From: Capsulimonadaceae bacterium
Lineage (GTDB): Bacteria > Armatimonadota > Armatimonadia > Armatimonadales > Capsulimonadaceae
Direction of reading: 5' to 3'
Length of the DNA stretch: 64,000 nucleotides
NCBI GenBank assembly: GCA_965215505.1
Contig: OZ244065.1
Coordinates: 960,001 to 1,024,000, forward strand
Under the pieces are notes generated by a model. That model did not search any database. It saw only the letters and a list, made by a program, of their open reading frames with translations, and was not told where the DNA came from. Position numbers and translations under genes: made by a program. This document shows positions 16,158 to 32,755 of this stretch, one piece after another; positions within the stretch are counted from its first letter, which is position 1; each line of letters opens with the position of its first letter.

Positions 16158-16670
16158 TCATCGTGGTTCGTTCGGGGAGCGCATCAGCAAAGTCTCCAGA
16201 GTGGCCCCGATGCCCGAGGCCAGTGCCAGCAGGACGAGCAGCCAGCCCACGAACGGGACGCCGGAGGCCAGCAGCAGGACCCACAGCCCAAGCCGCAGGG
16301 TGGGCAGAGTCTCCATGTCCATCGTGGAAAGCGCGTCGGTCAGGCGCAGGCCCAGCGACAGGGCGGCCACCCCCAGCCCCAGGCTTGCCAGCGCCAGGCC
16401 GGACGCCAGTACGGCGACGCCCAGCAGCGCCAGCACATGCGTTTTGAACAGGACCCCGCAGAGGATCAGGACAAGCAGCGCGGCGGCCATCCCCCAGAGC
16501 GTCGGCACCCCGCGCCCGCCGTCGAGCCGGGCCGCCGCCCGCTCGCCCAAGTTTGCCAGCGGCGCGGCCCTCCCGAGCAGCAGGCCCAGCAAGCCCAGAG
16601 CGCAGAGGCCCGCGATCAGGAGCAGGACGACGACGGGGCCGCCCAGGAACAGGCGCTCGGAAGGATTTAT
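16158..16670 (-). CDS. Membrane protein, probable ATA start
   Basis: Hydrophobic ORF extends upstream to an ATA overlapping the anti-sigma TAA; AGGAG 6 nt upstream; PFVGW motif. Confidence 0.75.
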   Translation of the reverse strand: MNPSERLFLGGPVVVLLLIAGLCALGLLGLLLGRAAPLANLGERAAARLDGGRGVPTLWGMAAALLVLILCGVLFKTHVLALLGVAVLASGLALASLGLGVAALSLGLRLTDALSTMDMETLPTLRLGLWVLLLASGVPFVGWLLVLLALASGIGATLETLLMRSPNEPR

Positions 16671-17209
16671 GACAGGCTCCTCTGCGCCTGCCGCGCCCGG
16701 ACGCAGAACATCGCGTTCACGGTGACGGCCCCCAGCAACGCGGCCCAGGCCCAGGAGGGCACGGGGACGCCCGCCGTCAGCGCGGCCCAGATCGTGGAGG
16801 CGTCGGTCGGGACGCCGTGCAGGTTGGAAAGCAGCCAGCCCGGCGTCTGCCGAGCCGCCACGCCCACGGTGTCCAGGCCAGGCAGCAGAAGCCCCGGCAG
16901 CAGGGCGAGGAGGACGACCAGCAGGACCGTCGCCGCCAGAGGCAGCCAGACCGGGGTGCGAGCGGGCAGTGAGGCCGGGCGAGCGGCGATCCGCGCCAGC
17001 ACATCGGCGGTGAACTTCTCACCGGGATCGTCTTGGGGCAGTGGCCGCGCCCAGCGGCCCGCCGCGCGGGCCAGGGTCCGCTGCGCGTCCCATTCCCGGC
17101 AGCAGGCCGCACAACCCGCCACATGGTTATCCAGCCGCGCCCGCTCGTCCGGCGTCAGCAGGCCGTCCAGCGACTTCAGGACTTCCTCTTGGCACGATTG
17201 GCAGTTCAT
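16667..17209 (-). CDS. Zinc-binding (zf-HC2) transmembrane anti-sigma factor
   Basis: MNC...LDG-L...HVAGCAAC; two TM segments; ATGA overlap with the ECF gene. Confidence 0.88.
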   Translation of the reverse strand: MNCQSCQEEVLKSLDGLLTPDERARLDNHVAGCAACCREWDAQRTLARAAGRWARPLPQDDPGEKFTADVLARIAARPASLPARTPVWLPLAATVLLVVLLALLPGLLLPGLDTVGVAARQTPGWLLSNLHGVPTDASTIWAALTAGVPVPSWAWAALLGAVTVNAMFCVRARQAQRSLS

Positions 17210-17796
17210 GGGTGCATATACTCCGAGAGCGCGGCGCGCAGGTGAGCACGGGCGCGGAACAGGTGCGTCTTGACGGTGCCCAGCGGGACGCCGACGGCAG
17301 CGGCGATCTCCTCATAGGAGAGGTCGTCCAAATGGCGCAGCAGGAACACTGCCCGCAGTTTAGGCGGCAGGGCGGCGACGGCGGCCGACAGCCGTTGCTC
17401 GCCCTCCTCGGTCAGCAGAGCCTCCACGGGGTCCCCGCCCACAAACGCCGGCTCGGGAACCGCCGCAATCTCCACTAGGGCCGGACGCCGCGACTGTGCG
17501 CGCAGCCGATCCAAGCAACGGTTGACTGCGATGCGGTACAGCCAGGGGCGGAACGGCTCGCCGGGCCGGAACGAATGGCGCTTGTCGTAGGCGGCGACGA
17601 ACGCCTCCTGCGCGACATCCTCCGCCTCGTCGGGCGACTGCGCGGCCAGCATCCGCCGGGCGAGGGCGACGACGCGGGTGCGGTAGCGCGTCACCAGCAC
17701 GCCGAAGGCGGCGACATCCCCGGTCGCGCGGACGCGCTCGGCCAGCGCCTCGTCGCCCGCTTCCTCCCGCGCCGCGTCTTGTCGGCTGCCCGCCAT
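17206..17796 (-). CDS. ECF RNA polymerase sigma factor
   Basis: AEDVAQEAF, WLYRIAVNRCLD, LSYEEIA, GTVKTHLFRAR; start could also be 17835. Confidence 0.93.
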   Translation of the reverse strand: MAGSRQDAAREEAGDEALAERVRATGDVAAFGVLVTRYRTRVVALARRMLAAQSPDEAEDVAQEAFVAAYDKRHSFRPGEPFRPWLYRIAVNRCLDRLRAQSRRPALVEIAAVPEPAFVGGDPVEALLTEEGEQRLSAAVAALPPKLRAVFLLRHLDDLSYEEIAAAVGVPLGTVKTHLFRARAHLRAALSEYMHP

Positions 17797-17827
17797 GCGC
17801 GTGATGATACCCGAGACTAGGGCCTGT

Positions 17828-19087
17828 TCAGGCATGGACCACACCCACGGGGGCCGGGGCCAGGCCGGGGAAGATCGCCCCGGCGTTCGGGTTCTGGAGG
17901 CGGTGCGTGATGACCTCCGCCAGCACGGCCCGGTAGTCGGTCGTCACCTTGAGGTCCCCCGGCCCGTCAAGCTGTCCGGGGGCGAGGCCGGGCCACTTCC
18001 CGTGGACCTTCCCGCCCACGACATGACCGCCCAGAACGAGCATGACGCCCGCCCGGCCGTGGTCGGTGCCCAGGCCGCTGTTCTCCGCCACGCGCCGCCC
18101 GAACTCGGACATGACCACGACCGTCGTCCGCCCCCAGCGCGCCGGCCCCAGATCGGCGGCGAAGGCGGCCAGCGCCCCCGCCAGGCTTTGCAGCCTGCCC
18201 GCCAGGACGCCCTGTGAGGTCCCCTGCACGACATGGGTGTCATAGCCGCCGTGGTCCAGGCAGGCCGCCTCCAGCCCGACTTCGCTCTTCATCAGCAGGG
18301 CGACCTGACGCAGCCCTTCCCCCAGGTCGTCTTTGGGGTAGCCGCTCCTGGCGGGCGAGAGCATGGCGGGCGGCAGTCCGTTCAGGGTCTTCAGCACCGA
18401 CAGCGCCTCCGAGCCGGCTTCGGCCAGGGCGTCTTTAGAATACAGGCCCGCTAGGGTCTGCTCGAAGCGGTCCGCTCCGCCGTGGAACGGCGATTGGAGC
18501 CGCAGGTCGCCGACGCTTTCCAGCGAGGTGGCTTGGCTCGCCCCACGCAATGACTGCGGCAGGAGGCTCCCCAAGGCGACCGCGCGCAGCGGGGAAGGGT
18601 TCACCCAGGGCGCGGTTTCCAGGTGCCGCGCCAGCCAGCCCGAGGCAGGCCCGGTGTCCCGCGCGACGCCGCGCTCCATGGTCGCCATCGCTTCAAAGTG
18701 CGAGAGCGTCTGGTCGTCCGAGCCGCAGGCGTGGATCATCGCCATCTGCCCCGCCGCGTGCAGGGGCATCAGGGCCGCGAGGGCCGGGTGCAGGCCGAAA
18801 TAGCCGTCAATGTCCAGAACCCGGTCCTGCGGTTTGGTCTTTGCGTCCCCAGGCCGCGCCAAAGCCAGCACGGGCCGGTTGCGGTAGTAGTCGTCATCCC
18901 CGTGCGGGACGATGACGCTCAGGCCGTCCACGCCGCCGCGCAGGAAGATCGAGACCAGCGTGTCGCCGCCCGCCCCCTGGCGCCGCGAGCGGACCGTGAC
19001 GCCGGCCAGCGCGCTGCGCCGCCCCGCCGCCCAGCCCAGGGCGGAAAGCGCGCCCAAGGCGAATAATCCTCGTCGTGTCGTTTGCAT
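17828..19087 (-). CDS. DUF1501-family protein, Tat signal
   Basis: TRRGLF, FLRGGVDGLS, FGLHP, SHFEA, GYDTH, SEFGRR-ENS-GTDHG, TTDYR. Confidence 0.9.
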   Translation of the reverse strand: MQTTRRGLFALGALSALGWAAGRRSALAGVTVRSRRQGAGGDTLVSIFLRGGVDGLSVIVPHGDDDYYRNRPVLALARPGDAKTKPQDRVLDIDGYFGLHPALAALMPLHAAGQMAMIHACGSDDQTLSHFEAMATMERGVARDTGPASGWLARHLETAPWVNPSPLRAVALGSLLPQSLRGASQATSLESVGDLRLQSPFHGGADRFEQTLAGLYSKDALAEAGSEALSVLKTLNGLPPAMLSPARSGYPKDDLGEGLRQVALLMKSEVGLEAACLDHGGYDTHVVQGTSQGVLAGRLQSLAGALAAFAADLGPARWGRTTVVVMSEFGRRVAENSGLGTDHGRAGVMLVLGGHVVGGKVHGKWPGLAPGQLDGPGDLKVTTDYRAVLAEVITHRLQNPNAGAIFPGLAPAPVGVVHA

Positions 19088-28344: not shown

Positions 28345-30651
28345 ATGAGAAAGACAACCCTGCACGGCCTGCTCCTCGCCCTCTCCCTGGTCCTGCTGCC
28401 CGCGCTCGCTCAAGCCGGGCTGCCGGTCCACTTCACGGCGTCCGTCAGTCCCTCCCCGGCCCGCGCCGGGGAGGTGGTGACGGTGACGGTAAAAGCGACC
28501 GTGGACGCGGGCTGGCACGTCTACTCGGTCGTCCCCGCCGCCACCGGCCCGGCGGCGACCGAGATTGCGTCACTGCCGGGCGGGACTCCGGTCGGGCAGA
28601 CGACCGAGGACGCGCCGATCCAGAAGTTCGACGCGAACTTCCAGACGCAAGTCGCCTACCATGAAAACGCGGCGACGTTCCAGCGGCGGTTCCGTCTCGC
28701 CGGTGCAGCCGGGAAATCAGTCACGCTCCATTACCAGACCTGCAACGACCACGTCTGCCTGCCGCCGACGGACGTGACGCTGCCGATCTCACTGACGCTG
28801 GCGGCGGGCGCGGCGCGGCCCGAATATGCCGCACCGGGGGCGACAGCAGAGGGCGCGATGAATCGCGCCCCTACGCCCTTGCCCGTAGGGGCGGGGTCCC
28901 CCCGCCCTCCTTCTCCTGCCGTCTCCTCTCCCGGCCCTTCTCCGGCCGGCGGCCTTCCCCTCTTCCTGCTCGCCGCCCTCGGCGCGGGCCTGCTCGCCCT
29001 CATCACGCCCTGCGTCTTCCCGCTCATCCCCATCACCTTGACCAACTTCGTCAAGCAGGCCGACGGGGACAAGGGGAAGCTGGTCCGGCTCTCGGGAGGC
29101 TACGCGCTCGGCATCGTCGCGCTCTACGTCGCCCTGGGCGGCATCGTCACGGCGACGGTCGGGGCGACCGGCATCAACAAGGTCGCCGCCAACCCCTACG
29201 TCAACCTGGGCATCTTCGTCGTCTTTGTCGTCTTCGCCCTGTCGTTTTTCGAGACGATCCAGCTCACCCTCCCGGCAAATCTCACCGCCATGCAGGCGGC
29301 GGGGAAGCGGCACGGCGGGACGCTGGGGTTGGTGCTGCTCGGCGTCACCTTCGTCCTGGCCTCGTTCACCTGCACCGCGCCGTTCGTCGGCACCCTGCTC
29401 GTGGCCGCCGCCGGCGGGGAGCGGTTCCGGCCACTGCTCGGCACATTGGTTTTCGCCTCGGCCTTCGTCTCGCCGTTCCTGGTCTTCGCCGCCTTCCCGC
29501 AGTGGATCGCCCGCATTCCCAAGGGCGGCCTCTGGCTGGCCCGCGTCAAGGCGGCTTTGGGGTTCGTCGAGCTGGCCGCCGCCTTGAAGTTCCTCTCCAA
29601 TGCTGACCAGGTCTGGAACTGGCGGCTGCTGACCCAGCCCGTCCTGCTGGCGGCCTGGGCCGTCATCTTCGTCTGCGCCGGGCTGTACCTGTGGGGGACT
29701 TTGCGCTTCGGCGTGGTCGGCGAGTTGGAGAAGCCGGGCGCGCGCGTCCCCGCCCCGCGCGCCGCCTTCGCCGCCCTGTTCCTCTTCCTGGCGCTCTACT
29801 GCTTCTGGGGGCTTGCGGGCCGGCGAGTGGCCCTGCTGAGTGCATTCCTGCCCCCGGCGGGCTATGGCGGGGCGGGGAGCAGTTCGGAAGACGGCCTGCC
29901 CTTCCTGACGGATTACAACGCCGCACTGGCCCAGGCCAAGGCGGAGGGCAAGCCGCTGTTCGTGGACTTTACCGGCGTCACCTGCACGAACTGCCGATGG
30001 AACGAGAAGAACGTCTTCCCGCGCGGCGATGTCCAGAGTGAGCTGTCCCAGTACGTCCGCGTCCAGCTCTACACGGACCGCCCTGGCGACGTACCAAACC
30101 AGAAGCTCCAGCTCGCGAAGTTCGGCGATGTCGCCCTGCCGCTCTACGGCGTGGTCAACCCGCAGACCGGCGCGGTCGTGGACAAGTACGCCGGGACGAT
30201 CACGGACGCGGGCGGCTTCACGCGCTTCCTGTCCCGCTCCCGGCTGGCCTCCGCCGCCCCGGCCCCGGCGCTGTGGGCCGCCTACAGCCCGGCAGCCGTC
30301 GCCTCCGCATCGGGGGCGGGCAAGCCGATCATCATTGACTTCACCGCCGCCTGGTGCGTCAACTGCAAGGAGATCGAACATGACGTCTTTGACAACCCCG
30401 CCGTGTCCCCCACCCTGGCCCAAGGCTTCGTGACCCTTCGGGCCGACCTGACCAACTTCGGCAGCCCGGCCAGCGTCGCCGTGGAAAAGCAGTACGGCTT
30501 CGGCAGCCTGCCGACCATCGTCATCCTCGCCCCGTCCGGCAGGGAGATCAAGACCCTGCGGATCACGGGTCGCCTGGGCGTCGAAGAGTTCCAGCGCCGC
30601 CTGCGTCTGGCCCAGGGGCAGACGGCCCCGGCGGCGGTGGCCGCACGTTAG
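28345..30651 (+). CDS. dsbD: DsbD-type disulfide reductase with two C-terminal thioredoxin domains
   Basis: GWHVYS, QTCNDHVCLPP, TPCVFPLIP, FTCTAPF, DFTGVTCTNC, DFTAAWCVNC. Confidence 0.9.
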   Translation: MRKTTLHGLLLALSLVLLPALAQAGLPVHFTASVSPSPARAGEVVTVTVKATVDAGWHVYSVVPAATGPAATEIASLPGGTPVGQTTEDAPIQKFDANFQTQVAYHENAATFQRRFRLAGAAGKSVTLHYQTCNDHVCLPPTDVTLPISLTLAAGAARPEYAAPGATAEGAMNRAPTPLPVGAGSPRPPSPAVSSPGPSPAGGLPLFLLAALGAGLLALITPCVFPLIPITLTNFVKQADGDKGKLVRLSGGYALGIVALYVALGGIVTATVGATGINKVAANPYVNLGIFVVFVVFALSFFETIQLTLPANLTAMQAAGKRHGGTLGLVLLGVTFVLASFTCTAPFVGTLLVAAAGGERFRPLLGTLVFASAFVSPFLVFAAFPQWIARIPKGGLWLARVKAALGFVELAAALKFLSNADQVWNWRLLTQPVLLAAWAVIFVCAGLYLWGTLRFGVVGELEKPGARVPAPRAAFAALFLFLALYCFWGLAGRRVALLSAFLPPAGYGGAGSSSEDGLPFLTDYNAALAQAKAEGKPLFVDFTGVTCTNCRWNEKNVFPRGDVQSELSQYVRVQLYTDRPGDVPNQKLQLAKFGDVALPLYGVVNPQTGAVVDKYAGTITDAGGFTRFLSRSRLASAAPAPALWAAYSPAAVASASGAGKPIIIDFTAAWCVNCKEIEHDVFDNPAVSPTLAQGFVTLRADLTNFGSPASVAVEKQYGFGSLPTIVILAPSGREIKTLRITGRLGVEEFQRRLRLAQGQTAPAAVAAR
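28849..28916. repeat. GTAG-type REP doublet embedded in-frame in dsbD
   Basis: GAGGGCGCGATGAATCGCGCCCCTAC...GTAGGGGCGGGGTCCCCCCGCCCTCCTTCTCC matches the intergenic copy 10469-10499. Confidence 0.8.
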
Positions 30652-30663
30652 GAGGTAAGCGAC

Positions 30664-30876
30664 ATGAACATCTTCCAGGTCTACGAGACTTACGTTGCCG
30701 ACCGGACAGCCGAAGAGCAGCTTCAACTAGCAACGCTCATCCTGCGCCAAAATGCGCCTCTGCCCACCGTGGACGAGAGCGATGAATGGACAGATCAGGA
30801 CATGCGGGACTGGAGCAATCACAGCCTGGCCCGTTTCGAGGCGATGGAGGCTGAGGAGCAGGGTGCCACGGGTTGA
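30664..30876 (+). CDS. Small acidic antitoxin-like protein
   Basis: AGGAGG RBS; DESDEWTDQDMRD; stop codon supplied by the adjacent repeat. Confidence 0.65.
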   Translation: MNIFQVYETYVADRTAEEQLQLATLILRQNAPLPTVDESDEWTDQDMRDWSNHSLARFEAMEAEEQGATG

Positions 30877-31003
30877 AACCCGAGGCACTGAAACTCCCAG
30901 CGTCCAGGGGACGCAGGAGACACGAGGCCCAGTGGCTCGAACGCTTCTTGTGTCGCCGCGACACTGGGCTTTCGGAGCCTCGGGTTTCAACCCGTGGCAC
31001 CCT
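30860..31003. repeat. REPIN/MITE-like element, 27-bp perfect terminal inverted repeats
   Basis: AGGGTGCCACGGGTTGAAACCCGAGGC ... GCCTCGGGTTTCAACCCGTGGCACCCT; second copy at 54961. Confidence 0.92.
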
Positions 31004-31010
31004 GACCAAC

Positions 31011-31052
31011 AGAAAGCGGGCGCGGGAGGTTTCTCCCGCGCCCGCTTCTTTT
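31011..31052. terminator. Bidirectional intrinsic terminator
   Basis: AAGCGGGCGCGGGAG-GTTT-CTCCCGCGCCCGCTT stem with T-tract, between convergent genes. Confidence 0.85.
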
Positions 31053-31076
31053 ACTTGCTCTTTTGCCTGGCCCAGC

Positions 31077-31328
31077 CTACTTCAGCAGATGCGCCGGAAG
31101 CTGCTTCTGGCCGGCGACGATGGCCTGGAAGTTCTTGGAGGTCAGCATCCGCGCCGCCACCTTGATCTTGACCTTCCCCTTCGGCGTCTGGATGGTGACG
31201 CTCTGGAGGTTCACCTGGAACCGGCGGGCCTTCTGCGGGGCGCGGTGCGCCCACGAGCCGGAGTGCGGGTGGCGGGTCCAACGCCCCGCCTGGGCATGAC
31301 GCCCGCTGATGTCACAAACTTTTGCCAT
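31077..31328 (-). CDS. rpmB: 50S ribosomal protein L28
   Basis: MAKVCDISG...RRFQVNLQ...KIKV; strong upstream promoter. Confidence 0.85.
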   Translation of the reverse strand: MAKVCDISGRHAQAGRWTRHPHSGSWAHRAPQKARRFQVNLQSVTIQTPKGKVKIKVAARMLTSKNFQAIVAGQKQLPAHLLK

Positions 31329-31374
31329 GATGCTGTCACGCTCCCTGCTGTTTCTCGTTAAAAGATGACCGGAT

Positions 31375-31404
31375 AGTATAGCACGCGCGCCCGGCGGCTG
31401 TCAA
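31375..31404 (-). promoter_or_regulatory. Sigma70 promoter of rpmB
   Basis: TTGACA-N18-TATACT with extended TG. Confidence 0.8.
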
Positions 31405-31474
31405 CCCTCGCCGCGCCGGAAATCGCACCGGGGGCGGGTATACTGGAACCAACGACCAACCCCAGGAGCCTCCG

Positions 31475-32755
31475 ATAAACGTCTCTTCCCCGCGCCGCGC
31501 CGCGCGTTTCCTCCAGGCGCTCGCCCCGCTCGCCGCCCTGCTGTGCCTTGCCGGGGCCGCCCTTGCCGCACCTCAGCCGGTCGCAGTAGACCCGCACTTT
31601 TACGACTACGACGCCCACGCGCCGTTTGCCGTGACGCAGGAGCCGTTCTCGACGCCGTATGCGACGGGGACCGGCTTCCACGCCCTGCGCGTCACCTTCC
31701 CCAGCCCGGTCAGGACGCCCTACACCGTCAACAACACGGTCACCGGGTTCCTGTTCCTGCCGGACACGCCCGGCCCGCACCCGGTCATGCTGGTGGAACA
31801 CGAGTGGCTGCCGACAACACTCGCGACCGAGTTCGAGCAGTCGGCGAGCCTGGCGAAAGCCGGCATCGCCGCCTTCCTCATCATCCAGCCCTACAGCTAC
31901 AACCGACGCCCCCAGCCGCGCATCGAGGACGTCGAGCTGCTGTCCGGCGACGTGCCCCAGATGGTCGGCGCGCTCCGGCAGGCCGTCCTGGACTCGCGCC
32001 GGGCCTTCGACTGGCTGGAAAAGCGCCCCGACATCGACCCCGCCCGCATGGGCGTCTCGGGCATCAGCCTCGGCGGCGTCCTGGCCCCGCTGGTTGCGGG
32101 CGTGGACCGGAGGGCGCGTCTACTCGTGACCATCGTCGGGGGCGTGGACGTTTCCGACGTCGTCTTCGACAGTTTCATCACGTCCGGCCTGCACCCGGCC
32201 CTGCTCTATCACGGCGTCACCTTCGACTCGCTGAAGCGAGACATGGCCCCGGTCGAGCCGGCCAACTGGCTGCGCGGCTTCGACCCGAAAAACGCCCTAC
32301 TGTTCAACGGCCGCTACGACGTCTTCATCTCGCCCAAGCAGGCCCACCACTTGTCGGAAGCTCTCGGCGGCGCGCGCATCGTCTGGACCCCGACGGGCCA
32401 TTACGGCGCGGTCTTCGCCCAGAAGCAGATCGAGGACGTCGGCATCAAGTTCCTGCGGTCGCGCTTCGGCATGGACCCCGCGCCCTACGTCCCGCCGTCC
32501 TCGCTGTCCGCGCCCACCATCAAGATCGGCCTGCTGGTCGGCGGGCAGGAGGGCGTCAGCCCCGCCCTCGCCTATCAGGCCATCACGTTCGGCCCGAAAG
32601 ACCGGCTTTCCCTGGACGGCCAGCTCACCCTGCACGGGCTGGCCGTCGCGCCCTCGTTCCGGCTGGACGAGAGCAATTCCGTCGGGGTCGAGTTCCCCCT
32701 GCTGCACGGCAAGCCCCGCACGCGCCTGTTCTACATGTTCCACTTCGTCCTGTGA
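31475..32755 (+). CDS. Secreted alpha/beta hydrolase, probable ATA start
   Basis: GISLGG nucleophile elbow, NGRYD, TGHY; 52 in-frame codons upstream of GTG 31631 encode a signal peptide starting at ATA behind AGGAG. Confidence 0.8.
   Translation: MNVSSPRRAARFLQALAPLAALLCLAGAALAAPQPVAVDPHFYDYDAHAPFAVTQEPFSTPYATGTGFHALRVTFPSPVRTPYTVNNTVTGFLFLPDTPGPHPVMLVEHEWLPTTLATEFEQSASLAKAGIAAFLIIQPYSYNRRPQPRIEDVELLSGDVPQMVGALRQAVLDSRRAFDWLEKRPDIDPARMGVSGISLGGVLAPLVAGVDRRARLLVTIVGGVDVSDVVFDSFITSGLHPALLYHGVTFDSLKRDMAPVEPANWLRGFDPKNALLFNGRYDVFISPKQAHHLSEALGGARIVWTPTGHYGAVFAQKQIEDVGIKFLRSRFGMDPAPYVPPSSLSAPTIKIGLLVGGQEGVSPALAYQAITFGPKDRLSLDGQLTLHGLAVAPSFRLDESNSVGVEFPLLHGKPRTRLFYMFHFVL

Follow-up and report, generated by a model that had tools for sequence, protein, structure and literature searches.

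Comparative evidence for a conserved, probably weak AUH start codon in the gene of a predicted secreted serine hydrolase in a Capsulimonadaceae genus

The formylmethionyl initiator tRNA (fMet-tRNA) pairs with AUA, AUU and AUC codons (together AUH, or ATH in DNA) by a third-base mismatch, and initiation factor 3 (IF3) disfavours such pairing. The AUU, AUA or AUC start of infC is a case of translational autocontrol, in which IF3 discriminates against weak initiation. Here we describe a serine hydrolase gene with an ATA codon at its apparent start, at position 31475 of a 64,000-nucleotide (nt) stretch of DNA (the window; G000:C1:960001-1024000) from a soil-type Capsulimonadaceae bacterium (phylum Armatimonadota) whose genome (G000) is a single contig of 6.18 Mb (6,177,771 bases) with 66.5% GC. 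Judging from this sequence and those of its relatives, we regard ATA 31475 with considerable confidence as the genuine translation start of a predicted secreted enzyme of 426 amino acids (aa), and as a weak AUH start that appears to be under selection.

The closest described systems are found in other bacteria. The sections of PMC13009471 that we draw on describe AUA starts of infC, ccpN and citZ and an AUU start of cvfC1 in Staphylococcus aureus, all behind extended Shine-Dalgarno (SD) sequences and with about 10% of AUG output, and they report up to 30% of AUG output for the ccpN AUA in rich medium. They also mention the AUU start of infC in Escherichia coli and that of pcnB. For Listeria, the corresponding sections of PMC13068326 describe six core genes with fixed non-canonical starts, an output order of ATG > ATA > ATT, and an ATG-to-ATA change in rsbW of Listeria monocytogenes that is a laboratory or strain mutation. 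Literature on Armatimonadetes together with start codons included no title on non-AUG starts, and the supplements of PMC13009471 and PMC13068326 may list more cases.

Start region and product of the hydrolase gene

The start region and the gene comprise the following features:

31439..31444, + strand: -10-like box TATACT (GGTATACT), the probable promoter of the hydrolase gene, read from the sequence
31464..31468, + strand: Shine-Dalgarno sequence AGGAG, 6 nt ahead of ATA, with the spacer CCTCCG at 31469-31474
31475..31477, + strand: proposed ATA start codon, the sole near-cognate codon behind the SD, followed by AAC at 31478-31480
31475..31567, + strand: putative signal peptide of 31 residues with n-region RRAAR, hydrophobic core and ALA/A cleavage-type site, read by eye
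31631..31633, + strand: GTG start of the public gene call, from the list of open reading frames (ORFs), giving a 374-aa product without a signal peptide
31475..32755, + strand: full coding sequence (CDS), 426 aa plus the stop codon at 32753-32755, for a predicted secreted alpha/beta serine hydrolase with a C-terminal beta domain

The ATA frame is closed upstream by an in-frame TAG at 31379-31381. Because no ATG, GTG or TTG occurs from this stop up to GTG 31631, the first canonical start and 52 codons after ATA, the leader has no usable canonical start. Translated from ATA, these 52 codons read INVSSPRRAARFLQALAPLAALLCLAGAALA/APQPVAVDPHFYDYDAHAPFA, in which we recognized by eye the putative Sec-type features RRAAR, then LQALAPLAALLCLAGAALA, then A-L-A/A. 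A preliminary description of this DNA had placed TATACT, AGGAG, the 6-nt spacer, ATA and AAC accurately, had correctly noted the 52 codons free of ATG, GTG and TTG, and had given a signal-peptide translation (INVSSPRRAARFLQALAPLAALLCLAGAALA/APQP) that we confirmed as quoted.

The 426-aa product gave weak alpha/beta-hydrolase matches in Pfam (ABHD18, 34.2 bits; DLH, 25.8 bits), and G196-I-S198-L-G200, D282 and H309 were invariant across 36 aligned homologs. An AlphaFold2 model with a mean predicted local distance difference test (pLDDT) score of 89.5 has an N-terminal helix at residues 6-31 and an alpha/beta core, and residues 349-425 make up a distinct, all-beta domain at the C-terminus. The top folds retrieved by Foldseek were CE7 acetyl xylan esterases and cephalosporin C deacetylase (2xlb_A, E 4e-14, TMt 0.68), and the matches 2xlb_A, 3fvt and 1ods had E values of about 1e-13, TMt of 0.68-0.72 and 17-19% identity. 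The GxSxG nucleophile elbow, the conserved Asp and His and the fold are those of an alpha/beta serine hydrolase, for which Pfam gives only ABHD18 and DLH. From sequence and model, we read the product as a secreted serine esterase-like enzyme with a CE7-like fold; assignment to CE7 proper goes beyond the evidence.

The database protein for the present gene (P0007) is 100% identical at 88% query coverage, but it has 374 aa, uses GTG 31631 and lacks the signal peptide. Near-identical genes are called at 374 to 452 aa in the database, with unrelated N-termini; the named homologs are from 'Armatimonadetes bacterium' and from Capsulimonas corticalis (53% identity). Gene finders restricted to ATG, GTG and TTG would truncate or mis-start this hydrolase family, with the signal peptide lost and a secreted enzyme misread as cytoplasmic.

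Conservation of the start codon

The hydrolase gene was present in all 23 same-genus genomes searched, and its 5' region was readable in 21 loci, G000 included (locus L004 ends at a contig edge). The codon aligned to ATA 31475 was ATA in 12 loci, ATT in 5, ATC in 4 and ATG in none, which makes it ATH in 21/21 and bears out the preliminary claim that ATA 31475 begins a signal-peptide-bearing protein. The following codon was AAG (10 loci), AAC (4), AAT (2), AAA (2), GAC (2) or GAA (1), and the codon immediately before ATH varied freely. The orthologs have a GGAG/GAGG-type motif 6-7 nt ahead of ATH, a GGTATAC/T box lies 29-30 nt ahead of it at a fixed distance in 21/21 loci, and a hydrophobic leader follows in frame in every locus. 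In-frame stops 9-14 codons ahead of ATH in six loci (L006, L009, L010, L013, L016 and L020) exclude a far-upstream start. In 4 of the 21 loci (L001, L009, L013 and L018), ATG, GTG and TTG are wholly absent from the in-frame or nearest stop through the end of the signal peptide.

If the public gene call is right, GTG 31631 is the start, and the preceding 52 codons belong to an untranslated leader whose frame is open by chance. This GTG is the first canonical start and is the one used by P0007, and chance open frames are common in DNA of 66.5% GC. However, the residues upstream of GTG 31631 (APQPxPVDPHFYDYDAxAPF) are kept as protein to about 50% identity, with an in-frame signal peptide in every ortholog, and the aligned Val is not retained as a start-type codon with an SD. 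In lower-GC relatives the frame is open just from slightly upstream of ATH, and in the AlphaFold2 model residues 54-58 and 68-76 form strands within the fold. We therefore consider a start at GTG 31631 highly improbable.

The ATA codon could also reflect an error in sequencing, or ATG may have mutated to ATA recently, killing the gene in this strain. Such a case exists elsewhere in the genome: among single screen candidates, which we followed into five relatives, a gene for a HAD-type hydrolase (G000:C1:5658228, + strand; L095) begins ATA AAA AAG, and its sole ortholog found (1/5 relatives; G020, 88% identity) begins ATG AAA AAG. The next canonical codon of that gene lies after the FDHDG motif, and its ATA may be a strain-specific weak start or mark a dying gene. 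At the serine hydrolase locus, by contrast, contigs from 4 runs of 4 studies, each spanning 31350-31750 in one piece, were identical at 31475-31477. Two of the four runs represent a variant strain with 3 single-nucleotide polymorphisms (SNPs) in 401 bases (31389, 31515 and 31672), none of them at ATA, and one of the runs without SNPs (X1 or X3) may itself be the source of the present assembly. A systematic base-calling error in which ATGAA is read as ATAAA was rejected, as ATGAA is undepleted genome-wide (7908 occurrences, against 2143 of ATAAA). Orthologs that uniformly use ATG, which the preliminary description had named as the sign of a strain mutation or an error, were not what we found: they have ATH and never ATG. 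We give error or recent mutation next to no credence.

A paralog in G000 (C1:1455082), 49% identical, starts with ATT AAC behind GAGG, and the aligned site of the paralog family is ATA, ATT or ATC in 22/22 loci read; ATG lies two codons ahead of ATH in two of these (L040 and L043). Taken together, the two paralogous families have AUH in 43/43 loci and ATG at the aligned site in none. Because ATA, ATT and ATC interchange freely and ATG is absent throughout, weakness itself appears to be selected. In the neighbouring genus, the single homolog (G024) reads GTG ATA, and more distant homologs have, as called, an ordinary M plus signal peptide. The start is ambiguous in homologs from Capsulimonas metagenome-assembled genomes (MAGs), where GTG lies two codons after ATT, and in one other Armatimonadota MAG homolog, where ATT stands behind GAGG with TTG 5 codons on. 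The ATH habit is thus clear in the sequences of the genus and uncertain beyond it.

We propose that transcription from the conserved GGTATACT box yields a leader of some 23 nt, which would present its AGGAG Shine-Dalgarno sequence 6 nt ahead of AUA. The ordinary initiator tRNA(CAU) would pair with AUA with a mismatch at the third position, giving an fMet start at a low rate that would be sensitive to IF3 as the proofreading factor. Selection would then retain a weak AUH codon, with ATA, ATT and ATC interchanging and never ATG, in the hydrolase gene and its paralog across the genus.

Several observations weigh against this proposal. In 6 of the 21 orthologs (L008, L011, L012, L017, L019 and L061), an in-frame insertion follows ATH. 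It is of palindromic or inverted-repeat character, separates ATH from the leader by some tens of codons and contains translated motifs such as RCGAQTPNVRLRG ... RRTLGASPHS; the frame is open throughout in 6/6 of these loci, where ATH and the anchor are 64-126 codons apart. The insertion may be translated, or a start further downstream may have replaced ATH. L007, L011, L060 and L061 have a later ATG or TTG that could act as the start, so ATH use may not extend to every species. Canonical codons also occur upstream, with GTG directly ahead of ATA in L006, GTG 4 codons ahead in L016 and TTG 7 codons ahead in L020. A consensus promoter scan returned no -35 element matching the + strand box, so that a full promoter is uncalled on that strand. 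Finally, we infer low output and IF3 dependence from other organisms, and likewise the reason for which a weak start would be selected.

The hydrolase gene is flanked by a divergent rpmB, with a DsbD-like gene upstream and a 504-aa gene without a Pfam family downstream:

31375..31404, - strand: divergent sigma-70 promoter of rpmB, TTGACA-18-TATACT (11/12 in the promoter scan, 0 in shuffles)
31077-31328, - strand: rpmB, the gene for L28 (Pfam Ribosomal_L28)

The rpmB promoter is near-consensus, has TG ahead of its -10 and stands back to back with the TATACT box of the hydrolase gene. TATACT also lies upstream of infC in relatives, so this box seems to be the common -10 in the genus. A long hairpin-like inverted repeat, which may be a repeat element, lies at 30859-31004, between rpmB and the DsbD-like gene; its Rfam matches were spurious sub-threshold microRNA families, and a scan of 30600-31900 gave no Rfam match near the gathering score. 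Predicted folding of the RNA at 31451-31530 was no better than that of shuffles (z = 0.35).

Further ATH-start genes and genome-wide screens

A second ATA codon in the window heads the third gene of an operon for an extracytoplasmic function (ECF) sigma factor and its anti-sigma factor:

17206-17844, - strand: ECF sigma factor (Pfam Sigma70_r2/r4)
16667-17209, - strand: anti-sigma factor (Pfam zf-HC2)
16677..16681, - strand: Shine-Dalgarno sequence AGGAG of the second case, 6 nt ahead of ATA, with the spacer CCTGTC
16668..16670, - strand: ATA start codon of the second case, overlapping the anti-sigma TAA stop (16667-16669) as ATAA
16158..16670, - strand: CDS of a 170-aa polytopic membrane protein without a Pfam match, the third gene of the ECF sigma/anti-sigma operon

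The window contains two copies of AGGAG-N6-ATA, at 31464 (+) and 16681-16668 (-), where 0.39 are expected, and at least two occurred in 2/100 shuffles. This count alone is weak evidence; the real support is comparative. The start at 16670, also put forward in the preliminary description, is real by that measure: the aligned codon is ATA in 15/15 distinct places (14 relatives plus G000), with a TAA or TAG overlap in those shown. The next codon is AAC (10), AAT (3), GAT (1) or ACC (1), and GGAG stands 5-7 nt ahead in 13 of the 15 places, in a tally made by reading. The membrane-protein query had no match in nine same-genus genomes. The context 'AGGAGCCT...ATAAA' that the two ATA sites of the window were said to share is mostly coincidence; of the surroundings of the hydrolase start, orthologs share just three features: an SD of the GGAG type, a spacer of 6-7 nt, and ATH with an A-rich codon after it.

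The sigma/anti-sigma pair is joined by an ordinary ATGA overlap, of which the ATAA at the third gene is the analogue. Initiation at the second ATA would follow the same mechanism as at the hydrolase gene, helped by translational coupling through the AUAA overlap with the anti-sigma stop, and termination of the anti-sigma frame probably delivers the ribosome to this ATA. For this case alone, a rival reading is that the membrane protein arises by frameshifting, fused to the anti-sigma factor. In its favour, the frames of the two genes share ATAA, and the second of them is open for 286 codons ahead of ATA in G000 and for 208-354 in relatives. Yet the overlap with TAA or TAG and the GGAG 5-7 nt upstream are retained in the places shown, no conserved slippery sequence was seen in them, and the ordinary ATGA overlap joins the preceding pair. 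A fusion is very unlikely here, and we continue to read the second ATA as a start.

infC itself (G000:C1:1709846, - strand; L062-L085) served as a positive control. Its start reads ATC AAC in 24 genus and family loci but ATA AAC in G024, and ATA AAC also in two order-level genomes (G033 and G040); a stop lies 1-2 codons ahead of ATH in most loci shown. Ahead of the first ATG, a 16-residue N-terminal stretch (INNRDFRRDPREPRVN) is conserved with synonymous changes, and gene callers that pick the first ATG would shorten the protein. A gene for an OmpR-type response regulator (G000:C1:2129390, + strand; L103-L107) begins with an ATA that overlaps the TAG stop of the histidine kinase gene before it, and has no SD in G000. 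Its aligned codon is ATA or ATC in 5/6 genomes and ATG in G016, one of the relatives with ATC has GTG two codons up, and a start at the next canonical codon would lose the conserved ILVVEDD motif.

Two further loci came to our attention. A membrane protein gene (G000:C1:1972932, - strand; ITYFRRNLGRTLPLAFVIVLSV...) lacks any canonical start ahead of its first hydrophobic segment and has candidate ATC codons behind AGGA. A 53-codon ORF (G000:C1:1035475, + strand; IVRYPSDRLYEEVAYIAYHFHW...) opens with an ATA right after GGGGGAA. In the -1 frame this ATA overlaps the TAG that ends the gene before it, and either coupled initiation at ATA or frameshifting could account for the ORF. Two other candidates were rejected: a glyoxalase gene (G000:C1:5316134), which has an upstream ATG in relatives, and a peptidase gene (5627840), rejected by eye, in which ATG comes 9 codons later and ATT stands right behind a TATACT box.

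The preliminary description had suggested that AUA initiation is lineage-wide. This could come about through a relaxed IF3 or initiator tRNA, or AUA could be read as Met, and many such genes would be expected. The two cases in 64 kb and the conserved ATH starts in at least five gene families are in keeping with it. ARAGORN, too, calls a tRNA with anticodon UAU and an imperfect anticodon stem as well as an unusual extra tRNA(CAU) (G000:C1:5948263-5948339 and 2219763-2219837). The genome-wide screens gave a different picture. With a rough set of 5245 genes obtained by codon-usage likelihood, a strong SD preceded ATG at 14.5% of gene 5' ends and ATA at 2.0% (5/251), which is background; of these five ATA sites, two are the cases in the window, and a real ATG follows within 1-2 codons at the remaining three. 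A screen free of gene calls, which required an SD, an 80-codon open frame and a switch in coding potential, gave 18.5% for ATG and 2.6% (23/899), again background, for ATA. Hydrophobic leaders upstream of the first canonical start were found in only 14 genes, both window cases among them. In 324 truncated-looking genes, ATA occurred at 7.7 per 1000 codons, compared with 7.9 in control leaders, and there was no excess of ATA or ATT. A crude count of AGGAG-N6-codon was uninformative, because most such sites fall inside genes. These screens are blunt: they passed over the response regulator for its lack of an SD in G000, and so give no full count of ATH starts, and they returned many false matches beside real ATGs, the glyoxalase gene being another false match.

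The translation machinery looked ordinary as well. A single standard initiator tRNA(CAU), which carries C1 and the GGG/CCC anticodon stem, is present together with an elongator tRNA-Met and a tRNA-Ile2-like CAU gene. The 16S rRNA 3' end (GGATCACCTCCTTTCT) contains the anti-SD CCUCC. The inspection of the initiator tRNA that the preliminary description had called for thus turned up a single clear and ordinary one, alongside an ordinary 16S 3' end. An internal ATA of infC aligns with ATC or ATT, both Ile codons, in relatives, start codons interchange among ATA, ATT and ATC, and the tRNA-Ile2-like CAU gene occurs together with the UAU tRNA, none of which fits AUA being read as Met. Nothing points to a code change or to a dedicated AUA initiator. 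From the lack of an SD-ATA excess, together with the ordinary initiator tRNA and anti-SD, we conclude that these are gene-specific weak starts, and we hold general AUA initiation or a changed code to be most improbable. Of the two outcomes that the preliminary description had named as speaking against its suggestion, the lack of genome-wide enrichment came true, whereas ATG in the orthologs did not.

A more speculative possibility, which we consider doubtful, is that the genus has an 'AUH regulon' made up of the two secreted esterase paralogs, the ECF-operon membrane protein, the OmpR-type response regulator and infC. All members of this proposed set start with ATA, ATT or ATC, most of them in an infC-like SD-N6-9-AUH-AAY context. 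The set might act as a translational stress or growth-rate switch whose output is inverse to IF3 activity; if so, envelope and secreted proteins would rise and fall jointly rather than merely being expressed at a low level.

Relation to known weak starts

Conserved weak starts are already known from other bacteria, and by sequence-level criteria the present case is a real and well-supported one of the infC/pcnB/ccpN type. The sequence-level marks of a conserved AUH start are found at the hydrolase locus: there is no canonical alternative, an SD lies at working distance, and the codon is kept among orthologs. With AUH in 43/43 loci, this is unusually clean comparative evidence for selected weak initiation, from a little-studied phylum and in a high-GC genome that hides such starts. 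These genes leave the known mechanism unchanged and are candidates with which IF3-sensitive control could be tested beyond Proteobacteria and Firmicutes.

As in infC and pcnB, a conserved AUH codon stands behind an SD, and the genus's own infC shares the SD-N6-9-ATH-AAY context. In contrast to those genes, the starts described here belong to a secreted hydrolase and its paralog and to a membrane protein, not to a translation factor, and no feedback loop is evident. The S. aureus sites, as far as the consulted sections of PMC13009471 describe them, are alike in that AUA or AUU is kept in related species, the SD is properly spaced and annotation had missed the starts. They differ in having an extended SD, in belonging to a low-GC Firmicute and in having been mapped by Ribo-Ret, whereas the present starts have a plain GGAG or AGGAG of 4-5 nt in a 66.5% GC Armatimonadota genome and are read from sequence. 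Listeria likewise has a handful of ATH-start core genes, six in the portion of PMC13068326 consulted, compared with at least five families here. In the same portion, ATA tunes stoichiometry at L. monocytogenes rsbW, which is coupled to the gene before it in a sigma operon, and the arrangement in the ECF operon is alike; the rsbW change is, however, a mutation, whereas the ATA of the ECF operon is fixed in 15/15 places.

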